From positions 3,831 to 67,830 of IMG/VR virus record IMGVR_UViG_3300042922_000152: a DNA stretch of 64,000 nucleotides; one strand, written 5' to 3'. Positions 1,540-63,470 of the stretch are shown here, piece after piece (the stretch's first letter is position 1; each line of letters begins with the position of its first letter). The stretch is from a virus. Under the pieces are notes generated by a model. The model saw only the letters and a program-made list of their open reading frames with translations. It ran no database searches and was not told where the DNA came from. The position numbers and the translations under genes are program-made.

Positions 1540-2637
1540 ATGCCAAGAGAACTGAAAAACGCACAAATAACCCATGTATCCTACGTAGACAAGGCAGCCA
1601 ATAAACGTCAATTCTTCCTGATGAAGGCAGAAGGTGACAAGCAGCCGAACTTTACGCGGGACGTCAAGATTCTCACCAAGGCTGACGACGAGCAAATGTT
1701 GGTCTATGGTGTTGTATATGAGCCTGGTGTTGAAGATGCCCACGACGACTTCATGACTGCTGCTGAGATTGAGAAAGCTGCTCACGGCTTCATGAAGGAT
1801 GCTCAGAACATCGACACTCAGCACAACTTTAAGGATGGCGCAGGCGAAGTGGTTGAAAGCTACATTGCCCCGCAAGATTTCAAAGTTGGTGAGCAGGTCA
1901 TTACAAAAGGCTCGTGGGTACTCGTCACGAAGGCGACTCCTGAAATCTGGGACGCCATTCAGAAGGGCGAGTTCACAGGCTACAGTATGGCAGGCGTTGC
2001 AGAGGTAGAGCAGAAGGACAGCGTAGAGAAGAATTTCTTCAAGCTGGTCAAGGACTTCTTCACCAAAGGCGAAGTAACTGACAAGTTCAACTCCGGCAAA
2101 GCGCAGCGCGACTTTCGTGCCGCATTTTATTTGTTTGAAGACGTGTATTACCAGTGTGCGTACAACAGCGATTCAAACGTACCTGACTATCAGCGCTTAT
2201 CTGATGCAGCTAAGGACTTGGGCGAGCTTCTGCTTGCACTTGCTGCTGAAGGCTCAACCGTTTGGAAATCGCTTGAACCTATCGACAAGGAGAGTGACAT
2301 TGTAATGATGAAGAAAGAGGAACTGCAACAGCTTATGAAAGAAGCGCTTGAGCCTGTCGTAACGCGCTTGGACAGCCTTGAGAAGGCACAGCCTGAAGCA
2401 CCTGCTGCCGAGCCTGTAGCGAAGTCGGAAGAAGGCGAAGGCGCGAAGCCTGAAGGCGAGTCTGCTGAAGACATCAAGAAGGCCTTCGCTGACATCGTAA
2501 AGGAAGCCCTTGCTCCTATCAGCGCTCGTCTGGATGTCGTCGAAAAGAATCGCGGTATTAGCAAGGCCGCTGACGCTGACGACAAGAAGCCTGCCGAAAC
2601 TGAAGTTCAAAAATCCATCTGGGCAGGCCTGCTGTAA
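1540..2637 (+). CDS. xkdF: XkdF-like prohead protease / scaffold
   Basis: MPRELKNAQITHVSYVDKAANKRQF, VYGVVYEP, GEFTGYSMAG; acidic scaffold-like C-terminus; SD-supported ATG at 1540. Confidence 0.85.
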   Translation: MPRELKNAQITHVSYVDKAANKRQFFLMKAEGDKQPNFTRDVKILTKADDEQMLVYGVVYEPGVEDAHDDFMTAAEIEKAAHGFMKDAQNIDTQHNFKDGAGEVVESYIAPQDFKVGEQVITKGSWVLVTKATPEIWDAIQKGEFTGYSMAGVAEVEQKDSVEKNFFKLVKDFFTKGEVTDKFNSGKAQRDFRAAFYLFEDVYYQCAYNSDSNVPDYQRLSDAAKDLGELLLALAAEGSTVWKSLEPIDKESDIVMMKKEELQQLMKEALEPVVTRLDSLEKAQPEAPAAEPVAKSEEGEGAKPEGESAEDIKKAFADIVKEALAPISARLDVVEKNRGISKAADADDKKPAETEVQKSIWAGLL

Positions 2638-2679
2638 TATCAGCAGCTTTGCACCTATTAAAAGGAGGACTTACACATA

Positions 2680-3627
2680 ATGCCTACTAACCAGCAAATT
2701 ATCGAAAAAGCAGCAATGATGCTGTCTGACCTGTCCACCGGCGGTAAAATGAATGACACTCAGTTTAACACCTTTTACCGCAAGGTGATTGACAGCCCGA
2801 CTATCCTGCGGGATTGCCGTACTGTTGTAATGCCTATCGACAGCATGAAGATTGAGAAGATCGGCTTCGGTACTCGCATTCTGCGTCCCGGTGTTGAAGG
2901 CGTAGCGCTGCTGGACAATCAACTCAGCAAGCCTACTACTTCCACCATCACGCTGAACGCGAAGGAAGTTATCGCGGAAGTTAACATCACTTACGATACC
3001 CTGGAAAACAACATTGAGGGTGACCGTTTGTATGACACCATCATGAACATGATTGCAGAGCGCGTGTCTCTTGACCTGGAAGAGCTTATCCTGAACGGCG
3101 ATACCTCTCTTTCTGCGACTGACCCGTATCTGGCAATTCTGAACGGCCTGCGTAAGAAGGCTACTTCCCACGTGGTTGACTACGCCAACGCAGACCTGAC
3201 CAAGACCTTGTTCAAGAAGCTGTACAATGCTGTGCCGACGAAGTACATTCGTAACCCCGGCGACTGGCGTTTCTACGTGTCCTACAGCAATGAGCTGGAG
3301 TGGAAGGACACTATTGCTAATCGTCAAACAGCTTTGGGTGACCAAGGCGTTACCTCTGCTAACGTGCCTACTGCATATGGCGTACCTGTTCGCGGTATTG
3401 CTATGCTGCAACCGTACACGTCTAACAGCGTTGACGTGAATGATGGTTTCTTCACTCACCCGAAGAACATCCTGACAGGTATCAGCCGGAACATTCGGGT
3501 TGAGGTTGACAAGGACATCCGCGCCCGGAAGTTCATCATCGTTGTTACTGCCAAGATTGACACTCAATTTGAAGAAGAAGACGCTGTGGCTAAGGCCATC
3601 AAGATCAAGAACACAATTTCCGGCTAA
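2680..3627 (+). CDS. xkdG: Major capsid protein (XkdG-like)
   Basis: KIEKIGFGTRIL, LENNIEG, THPKNI motifs; follows protease; strong SD. Confidence 0.9.
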   Translation: MPTNQQIIEKAAMMLSDLSTGGKMNDTQFNTFYRKVIDSPTILRDCRTVVMPIDSMKIEKIGFGTRILRPGVEGVALLDNQLSKPTTSTITLNAKEVIAEVNITYDTLENNIEGDRLYDTIMNMIAERVSLDLEELILNGDTSLSATDPYLAILNGLRKKATSHVVDYANADLTKTLFKKLYNAVPTKYIRNPGDWRFYVSYSNELEWKDTIANRQTALGDQGVTSANVPTAYGVPVRGIAMLQPYTSNSVDVNDGFFTHPKNILTGISRNIRVEVDKDIRARKFIIVVTAKIDTQFEEEDAVAKAIKIKNTISG

Positions 3628-20285: not shown

Positions 20286-20330
20286 AGACGCCGCACGACT
20301 TTGACACTAAAGTTTGTGCGGCGTCTTTTT
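20286..20330 (+). terminator. Intrinsic terminator before lysis genes
   Basis: AGACGCCGCAC...GTGCGGCGTCT followed by T-run. Confidence 0.75.
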
Positions 20331-20361
20331 CTATAATCACCTATATAAGGGAGATGTCAAA

Positions 20362-20790
20362 ATGTTGCTTAAAACTGACAACATGTTTAGCGGCGCGCTT
20401 GCTGGGTTGTTGACTTCCGTAACTGCTTCGTTGGGGGGTTGGGACTTGGCGTTGAAGATTTTGCTCGCCTTTCAGGTCATCGACTACATTACGGGGCTGC
20501 TCGCTGCATGGAAGAGAAATGAACTTGACTCCGAAATTATGCTTTGGGGTGGCGTTCGCAAGGCTATGACGCTTATCGTCGTAGGCGTTGCGGTTATGTT
20601 TGATCATCTGGTTAACGGTGGCGAGCCGATGTTTCGCACACTCGCTGTATATTTCTATGTAGCGCGTGAAGGTCTGTCTGTTACTGAAAACCTTGGTCTG
20701 CTCGGCGTTCAGCTTCCTGATTTCATCAAGGATGCGCTGGTTCAATTGAATAAGCGCGCAGGGGTCAAGGAGGAAAAGAAGGAGGAATAA
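20362..20790 (+). CDS. Holin (phage_holin_4_1-like)
   Basis: LGGWD, IDYITG, EGLSVTENLG; transmembrane segments. Confidence 0.9.
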   Translation: MLLKTDNMFSGALAGLLTSVTASLGGWDLALKILLAFQVIDYITGLLAAWKRNELDSEIMLWGGVRKAMTLIVVGVAVMFDHLVNGGEPMFRTLAVYFYVAREGLSVTENLGLLGVQLPDFIKDALVQLNKRAGVKEEKKEE

Positions 20791-20791
20791 C

Positions 20792-21586
20792 ATGCTAATC
20801 GCTCTTGATAATGGTCACGGTGCAAACACTCCCGGCAAGCGCACTCCGAAATTCGAGGATGGAACCTTCATGCACGAATGGGAGTTTAACAGGCGCGTTG
20901 TGCAGATTCTCGCTGTCGAGCTTCAGCGCTGCGGCTTCAGCGTTCTTGAAGTGTCACCTACTGACGAGGACACTGACCTAATGGTTAGAACAGCGCGCGC
21001 GAATACTGCAAAGGCCGACTTGTTCCTTTCAGTTCATGCGAATGCACTCACAGGCTCATGGGGCAATGCGCGAGGCATTGAAACGCTGACAGCAGGTGTA
21101 GGCGAATCAGTTCGCGTTGGCGCAATCTTACAGCGTCACCTTGTAGCAGATACAGGCCTTTATGATAGAGGCTTGAAAGATGGCACATGGTTAGGCGTTG
21201 TGAAGTATACGAGAATGCCTGCTGTTCTTGTTGAGTGTGGATTCATGGATAACCTGAATGAGGCGCGCTTGCTCGTGACTGAGGAATACAGGCGCGTGTG
21301 CGCTGTCGCGTTGGCTAAAGGAGTATGCGAGGCCTACAGCGTTCAGTATATAGAGGAGGATGACGAAGAAATGAAGGAACAACTTGCGGCACTTGAAAAA
21401 CAGGTGCAAGAACTGACAGCTACTTGTCAAGAATTGAAGGCGAATGCCTCAATGAAGGCACCTTTGTGGTCTGCTGAAGCTGTCGCTGCTGCTGTGCGTA
21501 ATGGGCTTATTGATACGCCTGACGGTGGCAGCTATGACTTCTATCGCATTCTGACAGTAATGTATCGTCAAAAACTGTTCAAATAA
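20792..21586 (+). CDS. Endolysin, N-acetylmuramoyl-L-alanine amidase (Amidase_3)
   Basis: LDNGHG, E, SVHANA, PAVLVECGFMDN. Confidence 0.95.
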   Translation: MLIALDNGHGANTPGKRTPKFEDGTFMHEWEFNRRVVQILAVELQRCGFSVLEVSPTDEDTDLMVRTARANTAKADLFLSVHANALTGSWGNARGIETLTAGVGESVRVGAILQRHLVADTGLYDRGLKDGTWLGVVKYTRMPAVLVECGFMDNLNEARLLVTEEYRRVCAVALAKGVCEAYSVQYIEEDDEEMKEQLAALEKQVQELTATCQELKANASMKAPLWSAEAVAAAVRNGLIDTPDGGSYDFYRILTVMYRQKLFK

Positions 21587-21659: not shown

Positions 21660-21690
21660 GACCTCTGCTAACGCAGGGGTCTTTTTTATT
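21660..21690 (+). terminator. Intrinsic terminator after endolysin
   Basis: GACCTCTGC-TAAC-GCAGGGGTC + TTTTTT. Confidence 0.85.
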
Positions 21691-21707
21691 TTGTTCGAAA
21701 AATCTTC

Positions 21708-21737
21708 GAATATGACAAGCTTTTGCCATCATATTCT
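21708..21737 (+). promoter_or_regulatory. Putative sigmaE/sigmaG-type promoter of the parM operon
   Basis: GAATA-N17-CATATTCT; no good sigmaA promoter seen in this gap. Confidence 0.5.
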
Positions 21738-21803
21738 CAAGCAAAGGTACTTTTGAAGTAGCGACAACATGAAAAGTACCTAACATTTGAGGAGGTAGCG
21801 AGT

Positions 21804-22661
21804 ATGATTATAGGCGTAGATGCTGGTAACAACGCTGTGAAGCTGTATGGCGAGGCTGGACCCCTGATGTTTCCTTCCGCGATAGGTGAATATCGTGAAA
21901 GGAACGTTGAAGGACGCTTTTCTGCTGACGACATGATATATGAGTTCAAGGGTAAGAAAGGTTTTGCAGGTACGCTCGCGCTGAATGAGTCGGAGTTTTC
22001 AGGTTCTCGCATGGGTACGACGAAGGCGCATGAGGAATTGCTTCTGCGCGTCCTGTTAGGTCTTCACAGGTACGGGACTTCTCCTGAGTATCAGATTATT
22101 GTAGGTCAGCCCATCAAGCGTCATACAGTCACAGAAAAGGCGAAAATGCGCACGATGCTGCAAGGTCAGCACGAGTTCACATTGAATGGGGTGACGCGCT
22201 TAATCAACATCGTGGATGTAGGTATAGCGCCTGAAGGCAGCGCGTCTTTTTGGGCAGCGCCTTGCAATGGTAAAGTGCGCATTCTTGACTTCGGTTCAGG
22301 CACAGTGAACGGGGCAGCGCTCATAGATGGTGCCTATGTTGATAAGGATTCATTTACACTTGAGTATGGATTCAATACAACACTGTCAGAGGATAGGATT
22401 GAAATGGCGCGCGCTGTAGCAGTTCACGCGCTCAAGAAGTGGCGAAACGAGGATAAACTGCTGCTTGCTGGAGGAGGCGCAGAGGTCATGCTTCCTCACC
22501 TGAGTGAATACTTCGAAAACGTCAGCCTGCTTCGTCCTCGCATCGTTACGAAGTCTTCAGAAGGAGTGGTGACGAAGTACCTTCAGCCTGTGTATGCAAA
22601 CGCTGTTGCTTTCTACAATATCGGTGTGCAACAGTTCAAGGTAGGTGTAGAGAATGGCTAA
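21804..22661 (+). CDS. parM: ParM/StbA-family actin-like segregation ATPase
   Basis: IGVDAGNNAVK, VGQP, PEG, ILDFGSGTVN, LAGGGA, ANA actin-fold motifs. Confidence 0.9.
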   Translation: MIIGVDAGNNAVKLYGEAGPLMFPSAIGEYRERNVEGRFSADDMIYEFKGKKGFAGTLALNESEFSGSRMGTTKAHEELLLRVLLGLHRYGTSPEYQIIVGQPIKRHTVTEKAKMRTMLQGQHEFTLNGVTRLINIVDVGIAPEGSASFWAAPCNGKVRILDFGSGTVNGAALIDGAYVDKDSFTLEYGFNTTLSEDRIEMARAVAVHALKKWRNEDKLLLAGGGAEVMLPHLSEYFENVSLLRPRIVTKSSEGVVTKYLQPVYANAVAFYNIGVQQFKVGVENG

Positions 22662-22905
22662 GAACTCTGGCAAGAACTATGAAATTGTTTCCAAGGCTAC
22701 GTCATTCAACGTCAAAGACCCTGATCAATTGAAGATGCTTGAACATGCGAATAAGCGTAAAAACTTCTCTGCCTACATTAAGCGCCTGATTCAAAGAGAC
22801 ATGGAGGGGGCTATGCCTGTTTTCGTGCAAGCCCCTTCGCAAGCTCCTATACAGGAGGAATCTGAAATGGATTTCAATCCTGACCTGATGCTGAAAATGT
22901 TATAA
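22654..22905 (+). CDS. ParR-like ribbon-helix-helix adaptor
   Basis: TSFN...NFSAYIKRLIQRDM; overlaps the end of parM. Confidence 0.75.
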   Translation: MAKNSGKNYEIVSKATSFNVKDPDQLKMLEHANKRKNFSAYIKRLIQRDMEGAMPVFVQAPSQAPIQEESEMDFNPDLMLKML

Positions 22906-22965
22906 AGGCAGGCGGCTAAAAAGGATAAGAGCAGCACCGATGATGATTTTAATGATAGGCGACAT
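22900..22965 (-). CDS. 21-aa hydrophobic peptide MSPIIKIIIGAALILFSRLPL
   Basis: Strong SD AAGGGGG 7 nt before ATG; upstream sigmaG-type promoter. Confidence 0.6.
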   Translation of the reverse strand: MSPIIKIIIGAALILFSRLPL

Positions 22966-23001
22966 TTGTTTTCCCCCTTAATTCGTTTTGGCTTTCGTTC
23001 G

Positions 23002-23031
23002 TAGTATGTGCGCGGGCGCGCACTAATATTC
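23002..23031 (-). promoter_or_regulatory. Putative sigmaG (forespore) promoter
   Basis: Minus strand GAATA-N18-CATACTA. Confidence 0.65.
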
Positions 23032-23050
23032 ATGAGGAGGCTGTTACATT

Positions 23051-23530
23051 ATGACAACAGTCAACATTAGATGGAAGTCTGAGGTAGGCGTACAGCAGGA
23101 AAAGCGCCTCATTACCTCTCATAGCATTGAAAAGGATTTCGGCACATCTATCGACAAGGAAGGCCTCGAAAAAACCGTCAAGTCATTCTTCTATTCTCTG
23201 CTGTCGCTGACAGGCGCACACGGTTTTTACACTATGGTAAAGGAGGCCTATGTACAAACGCAGACCGAGGCTGTAGCTGTGTTCGCGCAGCAGCAGCTTG
23301 CAGCGCCTACAGGAACGTTCATGACCCGCCTTGCGCCTCTGCTTCACATGTTTCAGGAAATCGCATTGCCTGTCGGCATCATCGTCAGTACATGGGGACT
23401 TGTCGAAATTATCATGGGAAATGTCGATGTAGGCAAAACTAAATTAAAGTGGTCAATTGTTTGCTACATCGGGATTTTCCTGATTCCTGAATTGTTCTAT
23501 GCAATACATGACGCATTCTCCAAGGGGTGA
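23051..23530 (+). CDS. Membrane protein with TrbC/VirB2 pilin-like C-terminal hairpin
   Basis: FQEIALPVGIIVSTWGLVEIIMG-(GKTKLK)-WSIVCYIGIFLIP two-TM pattern. Confidence 0.65.
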   Translation: MTTVNIRWKSEVGVQQEKRLITSHSIEKDFGTSIDKEGLEKTVKSFFYSLLSLTGAHGFYTMVKEAYVQTQTEAVAVFAQQQLAAPTGTFMTRLAPLLHMFQEIALPVGIIVSTWGLVEIIMGNVDVGKTKLKWSIVCYIGIFLIPELFYAIHDAFSKG

Positions 23531-23534
23531 CAGC

Positions 23535-23879
23535 ATGATAAGTGCAACAGCAAAAGGCTTTCGTGTGCTGCTTGAGCCTGAAAAGGATTATGATGGGTTC
23601 TTCGGCTTCTTCAGAGAGGCGCGCGACGATTACGCAGAGATAGGCAGATTCCTTTCAGACATGCGACATGAAGGTATCTGGTATGCTATTACAGGTCAAT
23701 ACTTTACAGATTGGCTCATAGGCATAGGAAACACAATCCTTTATTACTCGGATGCGCTTGTTCTTGTCGCTATGGGTGCAACGCTGTTTTGCATCTTCGG
23801 AAGCAAGAAGGCGCGCAGCGTTCTTTACTGGACAATCGTCTCATATGGCTTCATCAAGTTTCTGGGGGTGCTATTTTGA
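23535..23879 (+). CDS. Small membrane protein (second pilin-like hairpin)
   Basis: Two C-terminal hydrophobic helices separated by GSKKAR. Confidence 0.6.
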   Translation: MISATAKGFRVLLEPEKDYDGFFGFFREARDDYAEIGRFLSDMRHEGIWYAITGQYFTDWLIGIGNTILYYSDALVLVAMGATLFCIFGSKKARSVLYWTIVSYGFIKFLGVLF

Positions 23880-26173
23880 ATTGGCTACTGAACAAGGAGT
23901 ATGTACGCCTGAAGCTGATTCCTGATAGCTCTGTCAGGAACTGGCGAGCAGAAGACCTTGCCAAGACGATTGCAGAACAGTTTAAGCTTCCTATAGAACG
24001 CATCGTGTCTGAAGGCTTGCGTATCAAAGGTTATAAAGTGCAGGAGCGCGCAGGCTTTGAAATCGCCTTTCAAGATGGTTCTGTAACATTTTATCTTACA
24101 GTTCCCAAGCACATAGCGCCTCTCGTTGTCAGGCGCTTGCAGTCTATTTGGGATAGAGCGACATTCGAGGAGACGACATTCGCAAAGCCTTTTGACAGCA
24201 ATATGTCAACAGTTTACGAGCTTGTGTACAAGAAACACGACATGTACTCACTACACACGGACGCAAAGAATAATCTTCCTCTTATCTCGCTGATTGAGTC
24301 AGGCAGGTTACTTGGTGAAGGCGAGCGCGCTTCTGTGTTCGCCTACCTTGAGCCTATCAATCAAATTAGTTGGAACTACAAAATGCAGCAAGCTTGGGAG
24401 ATATTGCGCAGCGGCAAGCTGCCTATGCGCGCACAGCTTACTGTGAGGGTTGTTATTTACATGATAGTATCGGGCCTTGCTTCAATCCTGCAAGAGATTA
24501 TGGCAGCAATGTCTGATGTCCTGTCTTCAGGACGTGGCAACAATATCTACCTCAATAAGCCTGCAATAGCTCCAGAGGCCTCGCAGTATGCTATTGATAG
24601 ACTGTCGGAGTCAACGAAGCGCAAGGCAGCAAAGGCAGGCATGAAGGCGTATGTCTGGACAATGGCGCAAAGTAAGAACGAATCACGCGCCGACCTCGTT
24701 GCGCGCTCACTTGCTGTGAGCTATTCAGACCTCGCAGAGGACAACGAGCTTGAACCTCGAAGGCTTGGCAAAAAGCAGCGCGCAGAGGTTTTGCGTGTCG
24801 TCGCCTCCTCACAACCTCCTAAGATTAACTTGCGGTATAACCTCATGAGCAGCGCAGAGGCGGGCAAGCTTCTTCAGCTTCCCGGCCTCGAATTGCAGGA
24901 GGCATTCAAGGAGATTGAGCGCGTAGAGCAGGCACAGCTTGAAGTGGCTAACAAACGTTTCCTTGATCCGACAGGTATCCTTATAGGTGACGTTACCTTT
25001 AAAGGCAAGACGCAAAAGGTCTATCAGCCTATACATGATGACGACGAGCTTTGCCTGCCTCATGTAGGCGTTGGAGGCATGGGTCAAGGTAAAACGAAAG
25101 GCCTCCTATCTAACTACGCTGTAGAGGCGACGAGAGCAGGCTTTGCAGCTTTGACGATAGACGCGGCAAAAGGCGAGATATTCGAACAGGTTTCTGCTGT
25201 GCTGCCTCCTGAGCAAGTCAATCACATAGACCTTGGCAAAACAGTGTTCGCGCTCGACTTCTGCGAGGCCATGCACGATGACAGGGCGCGCTCACGCCTT
25301 GCAAATATTGTGGTATACTTCTTCGATGTTGCAGAGGAGACAACAGGACAGACAGAACGCTTTCTGCGCGCTTGTGTACTTGCTATGCAGCACGGAAGGC
25401 TGTCAGAGGTCTTGAGCATCCTGAACATGAACAAAGACAACAAGGAGGCAGAGAAGCGCCTTGACGAGGCTATACAGCGCCTCATAGACCGAGACGATGA
25501 ATTTAACCTCGCCACGCTGAAAGAGTTCAAAAGCTATGATACAGGAATGAGGCGCAAGATACTGTCGCCTATCCTGAACAGGATGAACGACATACTTGGT
25601 GACGAGCATCTTGCCAAATGCATGAAAGCTGACAACTCACTTGATTTTGTTGAAATCATGAGCAAGCGAAATCTGTGTACGGTCATAGACGTGCGCGCGG
25701 ATGATCTTGACAAAGTAGCGGTGAACGTCATTGTCAGCCTGCTATCATTGAAGATTGATCTTGCCATGAGGATGCGTGAGAAGATCAAAGGCCCAGAGGC
25801 CTCGTTTCCTTACTTCGCGCTCATTGACGAACCACATCAATACATGAAGTCAACAAAGATATGGGAGGACGCTGTTGTGGAATCAAGGAAGTGGCGTGTG
25901 TGCTACTTCTGGACATTTCACTATTTTGACCAACTGCCTGCGAAGCTTCAAAAAGCAATCAAGAACGCGCTGCCTCATTATCACCTTTATCCTACATCAA
26001 CCGAAACCTTCAAAAGCCTCCTTCAGGAAATACGTCCTTTTGTTCTGGACGATGCGCTAAAACTAAAACGATGGCATGCAATCAACGTTATCAGGTCAGG
26101 AGGCGAAAACGCTACGCCGTTCATAGCGCACATGGCTGCACCCCCAAAAGACCGCTTAAAATCAGGAGCTTAA
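23876..26173 (+). CDS. FtsK/HerA-superfamily ATPase, VirD4/TraG coupling-protein-like
   Basis: Walker A GGMGQGKT, TIDAAKGE, Walker B ALIDEPHQ, ESRKWR; TTG start overlapping upstream stop. Confidence 0.8.
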   Translation: MNWLLNKEYVRLKLIPDSSVRNWRAEDLAKTIAEQFKLPIERIVSEGLRIKGYKVQERAGFEIAFQDGSVTFYLTVPKHIAPLVVRRLQSIWDRATFEETTFAKPFDSNMSTVYELVYKKHDMYSLHTDAKNNLPLISLIESGRLLGEGERASVFAYLEPINQISWNYKMQQAWEILRSGKLPMRAQLTVRVVIYMIVSGLASILQEIMAAMSDVLSSGRGNNIYLNKPAIAPEASQYAIDRLSESTKRKAAKAGMKAYVWTMAQSKNESRADLVARSLAVSYSDLAEDNELEPRRLGKKQRAEVLRVVASSQPPKINLRYNLMSSAEAGKLLQLPGLELQEAFKEIERVEQAQLEVANKRFLDPTGILIGDVTFKGKTQKVYQPIHDDDELCLPHVGVGGMGQGKTKGLLSNYAVEATRAGFAALTIDAAKGEIFEQVSAVLPPEQVNHIDLGKTVFALDFCEAMHDDRARSRLANIVVYFFDVAEETTGQTERFLRACVLAMQHGRLSEVLSILNMNKDNKEAEKRLDEAIQRLIDRDDEFNLATLKEFKSYDTGMRRKILSPILNRMNDILGDEHLAKCMKADNSLDFVEIMSKRNLCTVIDVRADDLDKVAVNVIVSLLSLKIDLAMRMREKIKGPEASFPYFALIDEPHQYMKSTKIWEDAVVESRKWRVCYFWTFHYFDQLPAKLQKAIKNALPHYHLYPTSTETFKSLLQEIRPFVLDDALKLKRWHAINVIRSGGENATPFIAHMAAPPKDRLKSGA

Positions 26174-26194
26174 AAAGTTCCTGATTTTTTTTTT
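26158..26194 (+). terminator. Intrinsic terminator
   Basis: AAAATCAGGAGC-TTAAAAA-GTTCCTGATTTT + long T-run. Confidence 0.8.
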
Positions 26195-26214
26195 GTTTTT
26201 ATGATTAAAATGGC

Positions 26215-26299: not shown

Positions 26300-27505
26300 A
26301 TGAATAAACTGACTGTAGCTCAAATTAAGGAACTGGTTGAATTTAAGGCTGTAGCTGCCTCGTCCGGCAAGAAAGCGTCCTTTAAGGTCATCGACGACAC
26401 GAAAGCTGTAGCAGCTTTCGAAGATGGCACTTCGAAGGAAATCAAGCTCGAAACTATCAGCAAAATGTGGCGTCTCGAAGGCGAAGCAGGTGAAGCAGGT
26501 GAAGGCGCTCCTGCTGGCGAGGATGCTCCCAAGGTTGAGAAGACCGCCGAAGAAACCGCTGCTGAGAAGGCTGCCGCGAAAGCTGCTGACAAGGCGAAGA
26601 AGGACGCAGAGAAGGCAGAGGCGAAGGCAAAGCGCGAAGCTGACAAGGCCGCTGCAAAGGCGAAGGCTGAGGCTGACAAGAAGGCGAAGGAAGAAGAGAA
26701 CGCTGCAAAGCTGGCGAGCCTGAAGAAGCCCTTGACGCTGCCTGAAGAAAAGCTTGAGGCCCGCGTTACTGAGAAGGAAGCCACCATTTTCAACGTACTC
26801 GCAGGCCTCGTGCTGACGACTGCTGATGGCGTGTCCACCTTTGACCTCGTTGACATTGCACAACGTACAGACATGAAAGCTCGTGTCGTGAAGGGCATCC
26901 TCGGCAGCCTCGTGAAGAAGCGCTTCGTTGAATCCAAGGAAACGAAGGAAGGCGAGAACACGATTGACGTGTTCCACATCGTTCCTACCTACGCGAACAA
27001 GACTCTTGTTCCTTCTGCTGACGCACATGTTGGTACTACTGCTCAACGCCGCGAGACTCAAATTGACACTTCGCCTGCTGTGCCTGCCTGCGACGATTAC
27101 AACAAGTTCCTGCTGGCCTTCGTGAACAACGTCAAGGAAAAGCTGCCCGGCTACAGCACAGTGAAGCGCGTCGGCGCGAAGAATTACATCAGCTTCCCGA
27201 CAGGTCAATCCGAGGCCTCGCTGATTGTAACGCAAGTCAAGAAGGCGCTGCGCATTGAGGTTTACCTGATGGCTGACACAAGCAAGCTGAATGAACTGTA
27301 TGGCAAAATCGAAGCGAAGAAGGAAGAACTGACAGCAGCGCTGGGTGAGCTTGCATGGAGCAATCCTGAAAAGACTCGCAGCGCGACAATCTCCCAAACC
27401 TTTGCAGCAGATACCTTCGAGACTGAGGCGGCTGCTATCGAAAAGCTGACCGAGCGCCTGAAGGCCTTCAAGGAAGCCTTTGCTCCCATCGTAACTGCGA
27501 AGTAA
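26300..27505 (+). CDS. Multidomain protein: Ala/Lys/Glu-rich linker, winged-helix-like segment, DUF4268-like C-terminus
   Basis: AEKAAAKAADKAKK repeats; DLVDIAQRTDMKARVVKGILGSLVKKRFV; NYISFPTG...IEVYL...ELAW; own promoter and terminator. Confidence 0.7.
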   Translation: MNKLTVAQIKELVEFKAVAASSGKKASFKVIDDTKAVAAFEDGTSKEIKLETISKMWRLEGEAGEAGEGAPAGEDAPKVEKTAEETAAEKAAAKAADKAKKDAEKAEAKAKREADKAAAKAKAEADKKAKEEENAAKLASLKKPLTLPEEKLEARVTEKEATIFNVLAGLVLTTADGVSTFDLVDIAQRTDMKARVVKGILGSLVKKRFVESKETKEGENTIDVFHIVPTYANKTLVPSADAHVGTTAQRRETQIDTSPAVPACDDYNKFLLAFVNNVKEKLPGYSTVKRVGAKNYISFPTGQSEASLIVTQVKKALRIEVYLMADTSKLNELYGKIEAKKEELTAALGELAWSNPEKTRSATISQTFAADTFETEAAAIEKLTERLKAFKEAFAPIVTAK

Positions 27506-27523
27506 GGTATACCTCATAATTCG

Positions 27524-27560
27524 AAAAGAGGTCAGCGAAAAAAATCGTTGGCCTCTTTTG
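27524..27560 (+). terminator. Intrinsic terminator
   Basis: AAAAGAGGTCAGCGA-loop-TCGTTGGCCTCTTTT. Confidence 0.75.
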
Positions 27561-27570
27561 CATATAATGC

Positions 27571-27599
27571 TTGCAGGTGTACATATTATATAGTATACT
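27571..27599 (+). promoter_or_regulatory. sigmaA-type promoter
   Basis: TTGCAG-N17-TATACT. Confidence 0.7.
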
Positions 27600-27637: not shown

Positions 27638-29440
27638 ATGGCGAACATCACTCTGGCAGTCAAGAAATCGCAGTTTATCAAAACGGCAAAGCAGTCACTT
27701 TTCGTCAGCTTCAGTTATGATATGAACCTGGTTGCAACAATCAAGACCTTGCCGACACGTTACTATGTAGGAGCTTCGCGCGAGTGGGAAGTACCGCTTG
27801 AGAGCGTGAATGATGTCATGAACCTTTTCAGTCAGCATAAGATCACGATTCAAGGCAAGGCGGTCACAGAGCTTGAGGCAGTAGAGCAAAACGCTCCCAA
27901 GACAATGCCTGGTACACTGTTCACCGCTGCTGAGAGCAAAGAATTTCAGTACAAGACGAAGCCCTTCTATCATCAGGAAGAAAGCTTCAAACACTCTTTG
28001 ACACATCCCAAATTTCTTCTTGGTGACGAGCAAGGCCTCGGCAAGACAAAGCAGGCCATTGACATTGCTGTGAATCGCAAGAAGGCGAATGGTTTCAAGC
28101 ATTGCCTCATTATCTGCGGCGTGAACACACTCAAGTCGAATTGGTACAGAGAAGTCATGATACACTCGAATGAACGTCCTCACATCATCGGTGCAAAGGT
28201 TGACTTCAAAGGAAACTCGCTTCGTATCAAAGAAGGCACCATGAAGGAGCGCCTTGCAGACATCAGCAGCGACATGAAGGAGTTCTTCCTGATAACCAAC
28301 ATTGAGTCGATGCGTGACCCGCGCGAATGGGATAAGCACCTGAAGAAGCACAAGCCACTGAACGCTACACAGCAGGTTCAATATGATTTCATTTGCAAAA
28401 TCAAAGAGCTTTGCGAAAACGGAACTATCGGCATGGTAATCCTCGACGAGGCGCACAAAGCCAAGAACTCTGAGAGCAAGCAAGGCAAGGCGCTTCACTT
28501 CGCAAACGCGCATTTCAAACTGCCCATGACAGGAACGCCCATCATGAACAATCCTATTGACGCATACAACGTCATGAAGTGGATAGGCGCAGAGCGCGGC
28601 ACACTGTATCAGTTCAAAAATCGTTATGTAGTGTACGGCTCATTCAATGACGTTGTAGGTTACAAGAACATGGACGAATTGCGCAAGCGCCTTGATGCCA
28701 TCATGCTTCGCAGACGCAAGGACGAAGTTCTTGACCTGCCGCCGAAAATCGAATCCACTGAATACGTGCAGATGTCGAAAGACCAAGCAGCGCTTTACAA
28801 GGAAGTGCTGAATGATATCAAGGCAAACCTTGCAAGCATTGAGTTGGACAGCAATCCTCTCGCCCGGCTCATTCGCCTTCGTCAGGTAACTTCGAATCCT
28901 CTGATTGTGTCTGATGTCATCGACGCCAACGCGAAGCTTGATCGGCTTGAAGAGATTGTGGAAGAGCTTATGGAATCAGGTCAAAAAGCTCTGATCTTTA
29001 GTAACTGGTCTGAAGTGACTGACGCTATCAGAGAGCGCCTGAAGAAGTACAATCCTGCTTACATCACTGGCGACACAAAGAATCGGGATGCAGAAGTACA
29101 AAAGTTTCAAAATGACAAGACTTGTGGTGTTGCGATTGGCACAATAGGCGCAATGGGAACAGGCCTGACGATGACAGCAGCAAGCACCGTTATCTTCTTT
29201 GACAGACCTTGGAACAAGGCTACTGTAGATCAAACAGCAGACAGAGCGCATAGAATTGGTACAACCGGAACTGTAAACGTCATAACGCTTGTGTGTGAGG
29301 ACACAATTGACGAGCGCATTGAAGAAATCATTTCAGACAAAGGACAAATTTCTGATGGCCTTGTAGATGGCGAAGCGTCACCCATTCTGAAGCTCGACAA
29401 GGATGCCAAGAAGAAATTGCTCAAGAAGCTGCTCGCGTAG
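27638..29440 (+). CDS. SNF2-family ATPase with N-terminal HARP-like domain
   Basis: DEQGLGKT, LDEAH, TGTPIMN, QTADRAHRIG. Confidence 0.9.
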   Translation: MANITLAVKKSQFIKTAKQSLFVSFSYDMNLVATIKTLPTRYYVGASREWEVPLESVNDVMNLFSQHKITIQGKAVTELEAVEQNAPKTMPGTLFTAAESKEFQYKTKPFYHQEESFKHSLTHPKFLLGDEQGLGKTKQAIDIAVNRKKANGFKHCLIICGVNTLKSNWYREVMIHSNERPHIIGAKVDFKGNSLRIKEGTMKERLADISSDMKEFFLITNIESMRDPREWDKHLKKHKPLNATQQVQYDFICKIKELCENGTIGMVILDEAHKAKNSESKQGKALHFANAHFKLPMTGTPIMNNPIDAYNVMKWIGAERGTLYQFKNRYVVYGSFNDVVGYKNMDELRKRLDAIMLRRRKDEVLDLPPKIESTEYVQMSKDQAALYKEVLNDIKANLASIELDSNPLARLIRLRQVTSNPLIVSDVIDANAKLDRLEEIVEELMESGQKALIFSNWSEVTDAIRERLKKYNPAYITGDTKNRDAEVQKFQNDKTCGVAIGTIGAMGTGLTMTAASTVIFFDRPWNKATVDQTADRAHRIGTTGTVNVITLVCEDTIDERIEEIISDKGQISDGLVDGEASPILKLDKDAKKKLLKKLLA

Positions 29441-45586: not shown

Positions 45587-46195
45587 ATGGGACGTGCATT
45601 ACTCGTGACAGAACTGCCCAAGCCTGTAGTTGGCGAGGAGGCGCTGATTGTAGAGCATACAGACCTGGTTCACTTCGTTTGTCAGCGTTTTCGGACTACT
45701 TCTCATTTTCTTAATGTTGACTATGAGGACTTATATCAGGAAGGCATGATTGGTCTGCTTTTGTCAATTCGCAAGTTTGACCCGACACGTGGTCTTAAAT
45801 TGTCTACCTACGCCGTACCTTCTATATACTTTGCTATTCGTAAATATTTACGCGACAAGTCGCGCTTGATTAGAACACCACGAAGTAAGGTTTCGAAGGC
45901 CTATATCGTCGATAGCTTAGAGCGTACTGCATATAATGGTGATAGTGAGCCTGTTACACTTGGCGACATGATAGGCGTAGATGACGACATGAACAGCTTT
46001 TATTCCGCTGACCTTTGCAACAGGATTATGGAAAGGCTTCCTACGTTACACCGCGAAGTTCTTAATTTAAGCATACAGGGTTACAATCAGCCCGAGATAA
46101 GCAAGAAAGTTGGCATATCGCAACCACATGTAAGCAGAATAATTCGAAGTTCGAAAGAAACCGCTCGCCAAGAATTGTCAGAACATCTTGCATAA
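45587..46195 (+). CDS. Sigma factor, SigF/SigG-like
   Basis: YEDLYQEGMIGL..IRKFD...KLSTYAVP.I...IRKYLRD; QPEISKKVGISQPHVSRI. Confidence 0.9.
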   Translation: MGRALLVTELPKPVVGEEALIVEHTDLVHFVCQRFRTTSHFLNVDYEDLYQEGMIGLLLSIRKFDPTRGLKLSTYAVPSIYFAIRKYLRDKSRLIRTPRSKVSKAYIVDSLERTAYNGDSEPVTLGDMIGVDDDMNSFYSADLCNRIMERLPTLHREVLNLSIQGYNQPEISKKVGISQPHVSRIIRSSKETARQELSEHLA

Positions 46196-48415: not shown

Positions 48416-49054
48416 ATGCGAAGCGTGGTGAGGTTAAGCGCAGCAGCGCAGAAGCTCGTTGAAGACCATTATAATCTTGCTTGGAAATATGCGCGTAAAT
48501 ATCAGCGCATGGGTTGGGCAAACGGCTTGACTGTTGAAGACCTTGTATCTGCGGGTCATCTTGCTTTAGTCGATGTTGCGCGCTATTATAAACCAGAATC
48601 CGGCTTCGCTTTCGCTACTCCCGCAATAAAAGTTATCAAGCGGTACATCCGAGAAGAAGTTGACAAAAACAGACGCAGAAAAGGCGAAACGCGAGGCTAC
48701 TACGTAATAAGCTTGGACGCTCTTTTGAATAGCGAGCGCATGAAAACGCAAGAGCACCACAATACTAAGCTGACCTATGCCGACACATTCTCGTACCTTC
48801 AGGATTTAACCGACATTGATTACATTGACTTCGTAGAATCTCTTACACTTATGGATCAAACTATACTTAGCCTTCGAATGCAGGACTATTCCTTTCGTGA
48901 GATTGCTGACATGTATGGTCAAAAGAGTATAAACTTTGCGCAGCGTCGCATGATCAAGATAAGAGAAAAATTCATATCGGAGGGACTGCATGAAGCCTAC
49001 CCGTCATTACAGCAAAAGGCAGGAAGAAAGCGTATCTCGAAGCCTCGGTCTTAG
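48416..49054 (+). CDS. Sigma-70 family factor
   Basis: LVEDHYNLAWKYA, EDLVSAG.LAL, FAT.A...I; YSFREIA HTH. Confidence 0.85.
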   Translation: MRSVVRLSAAAQKLVEDHYNLAWKYARKYQRMGWANGLTVEDLVSAGHLALVDVARYYKPESGFAFATPAIKVIKRYIREEVDKNRRRKGETRGYYVISLDALLNSERMKTQEHHNTKLTYADTFSYLQDLTDIDYIDFVESLTLMDQTILSLRMQDYSFREIADMYGQKSINFAQRRMIKIREKFISEGLHEAYPSLQQKAGRKRISKPRS

Positions 49055-63246: not shown

Positions 63247-63470
63247 CTTGTTACGCTGCTGAAAGGAAGCTCTGTTCCCCCTTCCTGTGTTCTCCTCCAA
63301 GACAATACAGATAAGGCTTGCGCGCAGAGGACACTTAAATGTGTCGTCCCCATCCTCATGGCGTTTATCCTACTGGGAGACGCGAAACGGACCGAGGTCA
63401 ATAATATGAATAGCCTCCGAGCGCTATAGCATACAAGCCTGACAGAGCTTCCTTTCATCAGCATAATAAG
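63247..63470 (+). ncRNA. Putative structured RNA / late leader
   Basis: Long closing inverted repeat with nested stems; no credible ORF. Confidence 0.5.

Follow-up and report, generated by a model that had tools for sequence, protein, structure and literature searches.

A gene cassette at positions 21708–26173 of a 64,000-nucleotide stretch of soil phage DNA (the window, bases 3831–67830 of IMG/VR record IMGVR_UViG_3300042922_000152) is, by the homology of its proteins, a copy of the gene 31-31.1-31.2-32 accessory cassette of Bacillus phage SPP1. What is new here is a member of the family with a ParM and ParR (ParMR) front end and without an M23 peptidase domain. The large ATPase of the cassette is VirB4-like in both of its modelled domains, and sequence comparison places among its genes, on the minus strand, a conserved and unannotated micropeptide gene with a promoter of the forespore type. 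Two findings make a tie to sporulation plausible: only endospore formers and their phages yielded members of the ATPase family, and the antisense promoter of the forespore type is conserved. That the cassette has a sporulation-linked role is our favoured reading, held tentatively and at a little short of an even balance; its most specific version, carriage of the phage genome into the spore, we hold to be unlikely. A first-pass annotation of this DNA, drawn up by a model from the sequence, had presented the cassette as a new system, which it is not, as it was described for SPP1 in 2018 (PMC6316719).

The record is 67,830 bp long, carries direct terminal repeats and is rated complete, and in the window all large genes lie on the plus strand. 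A search of sequencing runs for this phage gave two DNA entries, one perhaps its source sample and the other with a share of 0.05, and no RNA entry. The cassette is placed directly 3' of the late genes (holin, 20314–20790; amidase, 20792–21586), with a replication region containing an SNF2 helicase gene (27638–29440) downstream. A predicted plus-strand intrinsic terminator at 21660–21691 (stem 21660–21681, 9 pairs, then a T run), 3' of the amidase gene, closes the late structural and lysis operon, and a second one at 26158–26198 (stem 26158–26188, 14 pairs, then a T run) closes the cassette. Five plus-strand genes whose ends overlap or almost touch are packed between these two sites, which bears out the earlier proposal of a single unit between two terminators. 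In the accessible text of Godinho et al. (2018; PMC6316719) SPP1 gp31.1 and gp31.2 are described as having transmembrane segments and the gp32 C-terminus as similar to TrwB, VirB4 and FtsK; the products of genes 31.1-31.2-32 are proposed to form a trans-membrane translocon, with a role that "remains to be established", and the 31-31.1-31.2-32 cassette is also retained in Geobacillus phage GBK2. The same text, as far as it is accessible, does not mention the micropeptide open reading frame (micro-ORF), a sporulation link or the VirB4 N-domain for the SPP1 cassette. No functional study of the cassette beyond that of 2018 was found in our literature search, which does not exclude the existence of others, and the VirB4 N-domain assignment, the micro-gene with forespore-type boxes and the restriction to spore formers were not found in the literature searched.

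The ATPase gene (23876–26173, plus strand) encodes 765 amino acids, with a TTG start codon that overlaps the stop codon of the preceding gene. The protein is a homologue of SPP1 gp32 (25% identity to gene 32, 2e-38, tblastn) and matches phrog_5156 (2.4e-165). The full-length model has a predicted local distance difference test score (pLDDT) of 88.3, and residues 1–350 modelled alone gave 84.7. Comparison of this N-domain model with 48,161 chains (VIA-align) revealed the N-domain of TrwK/VirB4 as the best match (7o42_A, Z 16.0, root mean square deviation 3.8 Å over 249 residues), the next match being placed at Z 9.1 and all others below 7; the first 11 Foldseek rows for the domain are likewise all TrwK/VirB4. 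The C-domain (residues 347–761) gave ties between TrwB (Z 26.6), T. pseudethanolicus VirB4 (26.6), HerA (26.2) and DndH (26.2). Judged from these models, the ATPase is VirB4-like in both domains and is not a VirD4-like or coupling protein. The first-pass annotation had the length right and named a VirD4/HerA-type ATPase, which would fit the C-domain taken alone and is at odds with the N-domain, and its statement that no VirB4 is present is contradicted by this same protein. With the N-domain matching VirB4, the gene order reads pilin, small membrane protein, VirB4-like ATPase.

In the C-domain, which is of the RecA-like P-loop kind, the Walker A residues G403/G405/K406 and the Walker B residues D651/E652 are invariant in 30 ATPase sequences. 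Pfam gave no match for the window protein, AAA_10 appeared in 1 of 30 relatives (0.0041) and other matches were stray; the only NCBIfam match, to a VirD4-like model (0.005), falls well short of the cut-off; a search of the PDB by sequence, with the single sequence or with a profile, returned nothing, and a metagenome scan with the single protein as query found no relative. A membrane-spanning ATPase was considered and rejected, as the hydrophobic helix at residues 186–212 shows no conservation and is missing from 4 of the 30 relatives; the protein is therefore probably peripheral, as reported for SPP1 gp32. The Pfam searches for sigma, integrase, recombinase, relaxase, VirD4 and FtsK_SpoIIIE domains covered the full 67.8-kb record and the transmembrane (TM) scan covered the window. 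Relaxase PF03432, VirD4 PF02534 and FtsK_SpoIIIE PF01580 had no match in the record, and no VirB6-like polytopic protein was seen in the window, where proteins other than the tape measure have at most two predicted TM segments (VirB8-like models were not searched). Since relaxase, VirD4 and VirB6 parts were not found, this is not a normal conjugation system, and on this point, as on the lack of a relaxase and of VirB6, the first-pass annotation was right.

Two genes for small membrane proteins precede that of the ATPase. The first (23051–23530, plus strand) encodes p159, a VirB2/TrbC-like, pilin-like membrane protein of 159 residues with two C-terminal hydrophobic helices; the family alignment (A2) contains three hydrophobic stretches. 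p159 itself matches T4SS_pilin only weakly (0.026), and the assignment comes from its family, in which 10 of 20 aligned members match T4SS_pilin PF18895 (best 1.9e-6) and 8 of 20 match TrbC/VirB2 PF04956 (best 2e-5); the atlas leads for p159 agree with it. The second gene (23535–23879, plus strand) encodes p114, 114 residues long, with a C-terminal hairpin of two TM helices (68–90 and 96–114) and no peptidase domain. This hairpin aligns with the C-terminal 2-TM anchor of the relatives' proteins, a Gly-Ser pair in the loop being invariant (alignment A4). In the relatives the gene between pilin and ATPase encodes about 215 residues; a Peptidase_M23 domain, matched by 8 of the 11 aligned members (best 1.6e-26), precedes the 2-TM hairpin, and the hairpin alone is retained in p114 and in SPP1 gp31.2, which aligns to the p114 family in this region only (11% identity). 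From the alignment, p114 is the counterpart, and a remnant, of the M23-peptidase membrane protein. The first-pass claim of two VirB2/TrbC-like hairpin proteins consequently holds for p159 and is not borne out for p114, and the absence of a wall hydrolase noted there is correct for the window copy and cannot be extended to the family. SPP1 gp31.1 was not detected by the window-derived pilin profile.

The front end of the cassette is formed by two overlapping genes. The first (21804–22661, plus strand) encodes a ParM-like actin of 285 residues, which matches Pfam ALP_N (PF17989) with 64.9 bits against a cut-off of 26.3 (E 1.3e-17) and phrog_691, "partition protein", with 5.4e-41; its closest solved relatives are C. 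botulinum CBg-ParM (5.9e-7) and Cbc-ParM (9e-7), followed by AlfA (7.6e-4). On these sequence matches the identity of ParM, already proposed in the first pass, is secure. The second gene (22654–22905, plus strand) encodes a ParR-like small putative DNA-binding protein of 83 residues, a homologue of SPP1 gp31 (2.8e-6 to gene 31, phmmer) that matches phrog_8966 (2.9e-14); all its PHROG matches are to families of unknown function. It has the strand-helix-helix sequence pattern of a ribbon-helix-helix (RHH) protein and an acidic and hydrophobic C-terminal tail. Nothing significant was obtained for its family in Pfam or PDB profile searches (best PDB 0.46; CcdA in 2 of 18 members at 0.0087), so that the "RHH adaptor" of the first pass stands as a sequence pattern, with its fold unsupported by these searches. 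The domain and structure searches suggested there have thus yielded ParM, the pilin family and a VirB4-like ATPase, and no match for the RHH fold.

The RHH proteins were sorted by tail type through reading of the aligned sequences, and the tail type tracks the presence of ParM. An acidic stretch and a hydrophobic C-terminus are seen in 18 of 22 distinct RHH proteins from ParM loci, the other four being second, gp31-like copies. Where ParM was not detected, 22 of 24 RHH proteins end otherwise, often in a GGIKF-type tail like that of SPP1 gp31, with two exceptions, of which L005 is truncated on its upstream side. The single RHH protein of the window has the ParM-type tail and therefore fits a ParR role; and since the RHH family occurs in both halves of the cassette, the ParM part and the VirB4 part have one protein family in common. 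D6E-like loci (L008, L039, L050 and L098) carry two RHH paralogues per cassette, one with the ParM-type tail adjoining ParM and a gp31-like one preceding the pilin gene. The parM leader contains an inverted repeat at 21745–21781 with 15-nucleotide arms that are 87% complementary; it was tried as an RNA hairpin and was not significant (z -1.5). No centromere-like iteron run was found near parM by the repeat search of the window, and iterons or inverted repeats occur upstream of parM in relatives. In D6E a divergent, unannotated gene directly upstream of parM (L001, about 2615–3040, minus strand) is of the XRE-type helix-turn-helix (HTH) kind by sequence reading, and the same reading places such a gene in many prophage loci (L010, L015, L019, L044, L053, L055, L064 and L070).

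Loci from viruses (45), genomes (30) and metagenomes (65) were searched with profiles iterated from the window proteins. In the 62 distinct loci that extend 3.5 kb or more upstream of the ATPase, the pilin-like gene is present in 55, an RHH gene in 40, ParM in 27 and all three in 24. ParM, where present, lies upstream on the same strand, and its occurrence in 27 of 62 loci makes it a frequent but optional front end. The ATPase family is large, comprising 570 clusters at 50% identity with E <= 1e-30 in the profile search. A tblastn search of 50,697 phage records gave 132 matches, including SPP1 gene 32, SPO1-like phages, TP-84 and D6E. These come from Bacillus (120), Geobacillus (3), the "Deep-sea" phage D6E (2) and Lysinibacillus (2) phages, with one each from Brevibacillus, Clostridium, Terrisporobacter, Alicyclobacillus and Microcystis; no Staphylococcus, Listeria, Lactococcus, Streptococcus or Enterococcus phage was matched. 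The 30 genomic loci belong to Bacillota genera that form spores, together with two short contigs binned to an Elusimicrobiaceae metagenome-assembled genome. In 401 genomes from the class of one matching genome, the ATPase profile was found in 26 (E <= 1e-5), about 16 of them strong and full-length, and a SpoIVA model in 272. All 26 ATPase-positive genomes belong to these 272, with 0 of 129 among the SpoIVA-negative ones, a distribution expected by chance about 4 times in 100,000 if kinship is ignored. In the Clostridium-type class 7 of 300 genomes match the ATPase, and 5 of 5 tested have SpoIVA, the background SpoIVA rate of that class not having been measured. The check proposed in the first pass, occurrence in endospore formers only, came out in its favour, the one Microcystis record and the two Elusimicrobiaceae contigs apart.

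The micropeptide gene (22900–22965, minus strand) encodes 21 hydrophobic residues (MSPIIKIIIGAALILFSRLPL) behind the Shine-Dalgarno (SD) sequence AAGGGGG, and its stop codon shares nucleotides with the final codon of the ParR-like gene. Homologues in 9 other loci are 38–67% identical to it; among those loci the listed ATPases are 30–53% identical, and the pilins of the 6 present in alignment A2 are 15–35% identical. A minus-strand hydrophobic ORF of 14–45 codons with an SD sequence is placed before the pilin gene in 67 of 75 distinct regions, compared with 2 of 75 on the plus strand, 5 of 75 on the minus strand within the gene of the ATPase and 1 of 75 after shuffling. The peptides of the family are very hydrophobic and 17–32 residues long. 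SPP1 itself has, in the gap between genes 31 and 31.1 (L002, 4059–4112, minus strand), an unannotated hydrophobic ORF of 17 codons with a strong SD sequence (AAAGGAGGG) and a CATACTA box upstream, and the SPO1-like loci also carry the micro-ORF. The terminator search gave none on the minus strand between 22900 and 21800, and antisense transcription would therefore cross parR and parM.

The predicted promoter of this gene (23002–23031, minus strand) is GAATA-N18-CATACTA, which meets the sigmaG boxes fully and whose -35 box lies 3 nucleotides from the SD sequence of the pilin gene. In the window alone such a match is no more than chance would give (1 found, 0.47 expected), and it is called real because it is conserved in relatives. 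Promoter models were tested on 59 distinct 85-nucleotide sequences upstream of the micro-ORF, window excluded, and compared with shuffles (shuffled counts in brackets). The sigmaF model (GTATA, 14–16 nucleotides, GGNAANAMTR) matched fully in 8 (0), with at most one mismatch in 22 (0) and with at most two in 37 (0); for sigmaG (GNATA, 17–18 nucleotides, CAWAMTA) the corresponding counts were 5 (0), 33 (1.0) and 43 (8.0). By comparison, sigmaE gave 0 (0) at all three levels, sigmaK 0 (0), 1 (0) and 3 (1.8), and sigmaA 0 (0), 0 (0.2) and 2 (1.2). The distance from the end of the -10 box to the start codon is 16–38 nucleotides across relatives. The antisense sigmaG-consensus promoter claimed in the first pass is in this way borne out by its conservation (43 of 59 with at most two mismatches), and on these comparisons the cassette contains a conserved, unannotated micropeptide gene with a forespore-type promoter. 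The boxes are those of B. subtilis (Table 4, PMC3416734), and SigF and SigG recognition overlaps, according to the accessible part of PMC7438776.

Forespore sigma factors of the host are not the only possible readers of such a promoter. The phage record encodes two sigma-70-family proteins, one (45587–46195) with its best match to the SigB/SigF/SigG family model (8.5e-35, below family cut-offs) and the other (48416–49054) a sigma factor of more distant kinship. According to the accessible part of Schwartz et al. (2022; PMC9429907), sigF/G-like sigma factors occur preferentially in phages that infect spore formers, and they lower spore yield. Related motifs were seen elsewhere in the window: GAATA-N18-CATACAA at 63408–63436, about 75 nucleotides upstream of terS (start 63510), GCATA-N16-CATATTA at 27560–27588, upstream of the SNF2 helicase gene, and, for the relaxed pattern G[ACT]AT[AG]-N16-18-CATA, 4 intergenic sites among 6 plus-strand matches. 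From their sequence, such sites may be promoters of one class, recognised by the sigma factor of the phage itself. A homologue of this factor was found in 0 of 5 related records, only 1 of which is complete, so that a host forespore sigma factor would be the simplest reader for most relatives.

In the favoured, sporulation-linked reading, the cassette would most likely work as follows. A hexamer of the VirB4-like ATPase would be held at the cytoplasmic membrane by the pilin-like and anchor proteins to form a small translocon, ParR would bind the inverted repeats that precede parM, and the phage DNA so bound would be moved by filaments of ParM. The forward genes would be expressed in ordinary infection. 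When the host sporulates, a forespore sigma factor or the SigF/G-like factor of the phage would turn on the micropeptide and antisense transcription over parR and parM, and the machine would be set differently on each side of the sporulation septum. Its net role would most likely be to settle what becomes of the phage genome when the host sporulates, namely carriage into the spore. In the most specific form of this model, which we consider unlikely, the cassette would be a machine of two compartments: a VirB4-pilin translocon would be made in the infected mother cell, the micropeptide would mark or gate the forespore side, ParM and ParR would deliver the genome, and the genome would so be moved into or kept in the forespore, yielding "virospores". 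SpoIIIE and the SpoIIIA-SpoIIQ channel are the cellular counterparts of such a viral machine, by analogy. Carriage of lytic Bacillus phages in spores has been observed, and for the entry of lytic phage genomes into spores host partition functions and Spo0A boxes are cited (PMC12991052, in its accessible part). If true, the two-compartment machine would be the first system encoded by a virus and dedicated to spore entry. The tie to sporulation has two independent signs, the restriction to endospore formers and the micro-gene with its forespore-type boxes, and the family is large and occurs in tractable model phages, SPP1 and the SPO1-like phages. Should the tie prove false, the annotation is still corrected by a VirB4-like ATPase, a remnant of an M23 protein and an unannotated peptide gene.

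Several observations weigh against the sporulation-linked role. Both phylogeny and phage gene pools are confounders of the host-range result, and the related loci are not independent of one another. The spacings in the promoter models are those we take to be usual, only the boxes being drawn from a published table. The phage encodes a SigB/F/G-family factor and has a like motif before terS, so the "forespore" promoter may be a phage middle or late promoter. To our knowledge VirB4 by itself does not act as a DNA pump, and neither VirD4 nor a relaxase was matched here; the window copy also lacks the M23 domain. On the forward strand, the closest relatives have TTGTAA-N17-TATAAT upstream, no excess of sigmaE/F/G boxes was seen upstream of the ParM (32), RHH (52) or pilin (71) genes of relatives, and the ParM upstream regions lean towards sigmaA (9 of 32 within 2 mismatches, 3.4 in shuffles). 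Lastly, SPP1 genes 31.2 and 32 are non-essential in the laboratory, and the SPP1 cassette genes belong to an early unit under PE5, both according to the accessible text of PMC6316719.

These last two points favour an ordinary early accessory role, in which the cassette would serve, for example, superinfection exclusion, the blocking or expelling of incoming DNA, or local envelope remodelling, and the micropeptide gene, transcribed by a phage or other alternative sigma factor, would provide a subunit or regulator. The position of the cassette after the lysis genes, where accessory genes gather, is in keeping with this, as are the many prophage copies beside a divergent XRE-type regulator gene, the M23 peptidase of the relatives, which points to action on the cell wall, and the possession by the phage of its own SigF/G-like sigma factor. 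It leaves unexplained, however, why 0 of 129 SpoIVA-negative genomes carry the ATPase, why phages of Staphylococcus, Listeria, Lactococcus, Streptococcus and Enterococcus gave no match, and why sigmaF/G boxes are present where a homologue of the phage sigma factor was not found (0 of 5 records, 1 complete). We judge such a role rather improbable.

The cassette may instead consist of two unrelated neighbours, a plasmid-prophage partition module of ParM and ParR that merely abuts the VirB4 genes. The Pfam search gave no match to tyrosine-integrase or serine-recombinase models in the whole 67.8-kb record, ParM is absent from 35 of 62 loci, and in the clade with 50–53% ATPase identity the two parts are set apart by 0.9–1.9 kb of other small genes, all of which would suit chance adjacency. 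Against it stand the constant position of ParM, upstream and on the same strand in 27 of 62 loci including integrase-bearing phages such as D6E, and the RHH family common to both parts. In plasmid R1, moreover, ParM and ParR are reported to bind type IV secretion system (T4SS) ATPases including the VirB4-like TraC and to promote transfer (Gruber et al. 2016; PMC4949242, accessible part). We regard two unrelated neighbours as unlikely.

The first-pass annotation itself had placed the forward operon under host sigmaE or sigmaG, as a pump for DNA or an effector from mother cell to forespore with a shut-off on the forespore side. Its promoter, GAATA-N17-CATATTCT, fits the sigmaG -35 box, agrees with 5 of 7 positions of the sigmaG -10 box and fits sigmaE poorly. 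On sequence reading the two boxes coincide with both arms of an inverted repeat (GAATATGA-N13-TCATATTC, 8-bp arms) at about 21708–21738, which is why a GAATA-N17/18-CATA scan matches both strands here. We consider the repeat a candidate ParR operator or parC-like site, or a weak sigmaG-like promoter. GAATA-N17-CATATTC is kept in one related lineage (L004/L049), where it stands just after TTGTAA-N17-TATAAT, that is, in the position of an operator; L006 and L007 have a sigmaA-type promoter with other repeats. Between 21690 and 21780 no good sigma-70-type promoter was found, so that read-through, the weak sigmaG-like site or the phage's own sigma factor may serve parM. This last result, the motif shared with the L004/L049 lineage, the conserved antisense forespore-type promoter and the restriction to spore-forming hosts are all in line with sporulation control of the forward genes. 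The palindromic nature of the motif, its partial consensus, the lack of enrichment in 32, 52 and 71 upstream sequences, the TTGTAA-N17-TATAAT promoters of relatives, the early expression of the SPP1 homologues (PMC6316719, accessible text) and the phage's own sigma factors argue the other way, and we consider this proposal very unlikely. Pumping of phage DNA from the mother cell to the forespore is, for its part, conceivable. Neither the sigmaE/sigmaG-type forward promoter nor the sporulation-controlled operon is supported, vegetative expression being what the first-pass annotation had itself set against its proposal; its suggested comparison of promoters among relatives finds the antisense sigmaF/G boxes conserved and the forward sporulation boxes not enriched. 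In L111, L112 and L113 a full sigmaK match (TCACA-N15-GCATAGTATA) lies 38 nucleotides upstream of the forward RHH gene; sigmaK control of this gene was rejected, since the three full matches are all from one lineage.

An anti-sporulation device, in which the micropeptide would be a membrane toxin that acts in the forespore or late in infection and aborts spore formation for the lytic cycle to finish, would agree with the very hydrophobic peptides of 17–32 residues, with a micropeptide transcript that converges on the ParR-like gene (its stop overlapping the last codon) as in type I toxin-antitoxin pairs, and with the lower spore yield caused by phage sigF/G-like sigma factors (PMC9429907, accessible part), yet it leaves the VirB4, pilin and ParM parts unexplained, temperate prophages, to which spore carriage would be of benefit, retain the peptide, and homology to a known toxin was not seen, no search aimed at toxins having been made; we consider this device very unlikely.

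Other features of the surroundings touch the cassette less directly. The gene 3' of the ATPase in the window (26300–27505) encodes a 401-residue protein with DUF4268 (3.5e-10) and weak, below-cut-off HTH-type matches. In the clade with 50–53% ATPase identity the corresponding place 3' of the ATPase is taken by a protein of about 500 residues with a DndB / GmrSD_N (ParB-like) domain (L006, 9403–10929; L082, 7952–9409). A dispersed palindrome, TTGACA-N6-TGTCAA, occurs in 13 copies with at most one mismatch in the window, where 0.32 are expected, at 716, 9204, 14817, 21413, 24192, 31945, 37676, 38174, 43213, 51722, 58891, 60932 and 62874; one copy lies inside the ATPase gene. The palindrome was not found in 5 related virus records, and therefore no tie to the cassette could be made.

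Compared with known systems, the cassette shares with the VirB2-VirB3-VirB4 core of type IV secretion systems (R388 TrwL/TrwM/TrwK; PDB 7o42, 8rtd) both ATPase domains, the pilin family matches and the gene order. It differs from these systems in having no VirD4, relaxase or VirB6 match and no significant match to the Pfam VirB4 model, and in being borne by lytic and temperate phages. Gram-positive type IV systems include a wall hydrolase, comparable to the M23 domain of the cassette's relatives. The front end resembles type II ParMRC modules (R1; C. botulinum CBg- and Cbc-ParM) in its ALP_N domain, in the overlapping small gene after parM and in the upstream inverted repeats, whereas the window copy belongs to a phage without an integrase match, with its own replication genes and with no iteron run. 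The coupling of ParM and ParR to transfer ATPases in R1 is a precedent for binding between partition proteins of the actin type and such ATPases, although R1 has a full conjugation system with relaxase and coupling protein. SPP1 lacks ParM and its RHH protein has another tail type, but it has the same order of a small putative DNA-binding protein, membrane proteins and a large ATPase after the lysis genes, with gp31 and gp32 homologous to the proteins of the window.

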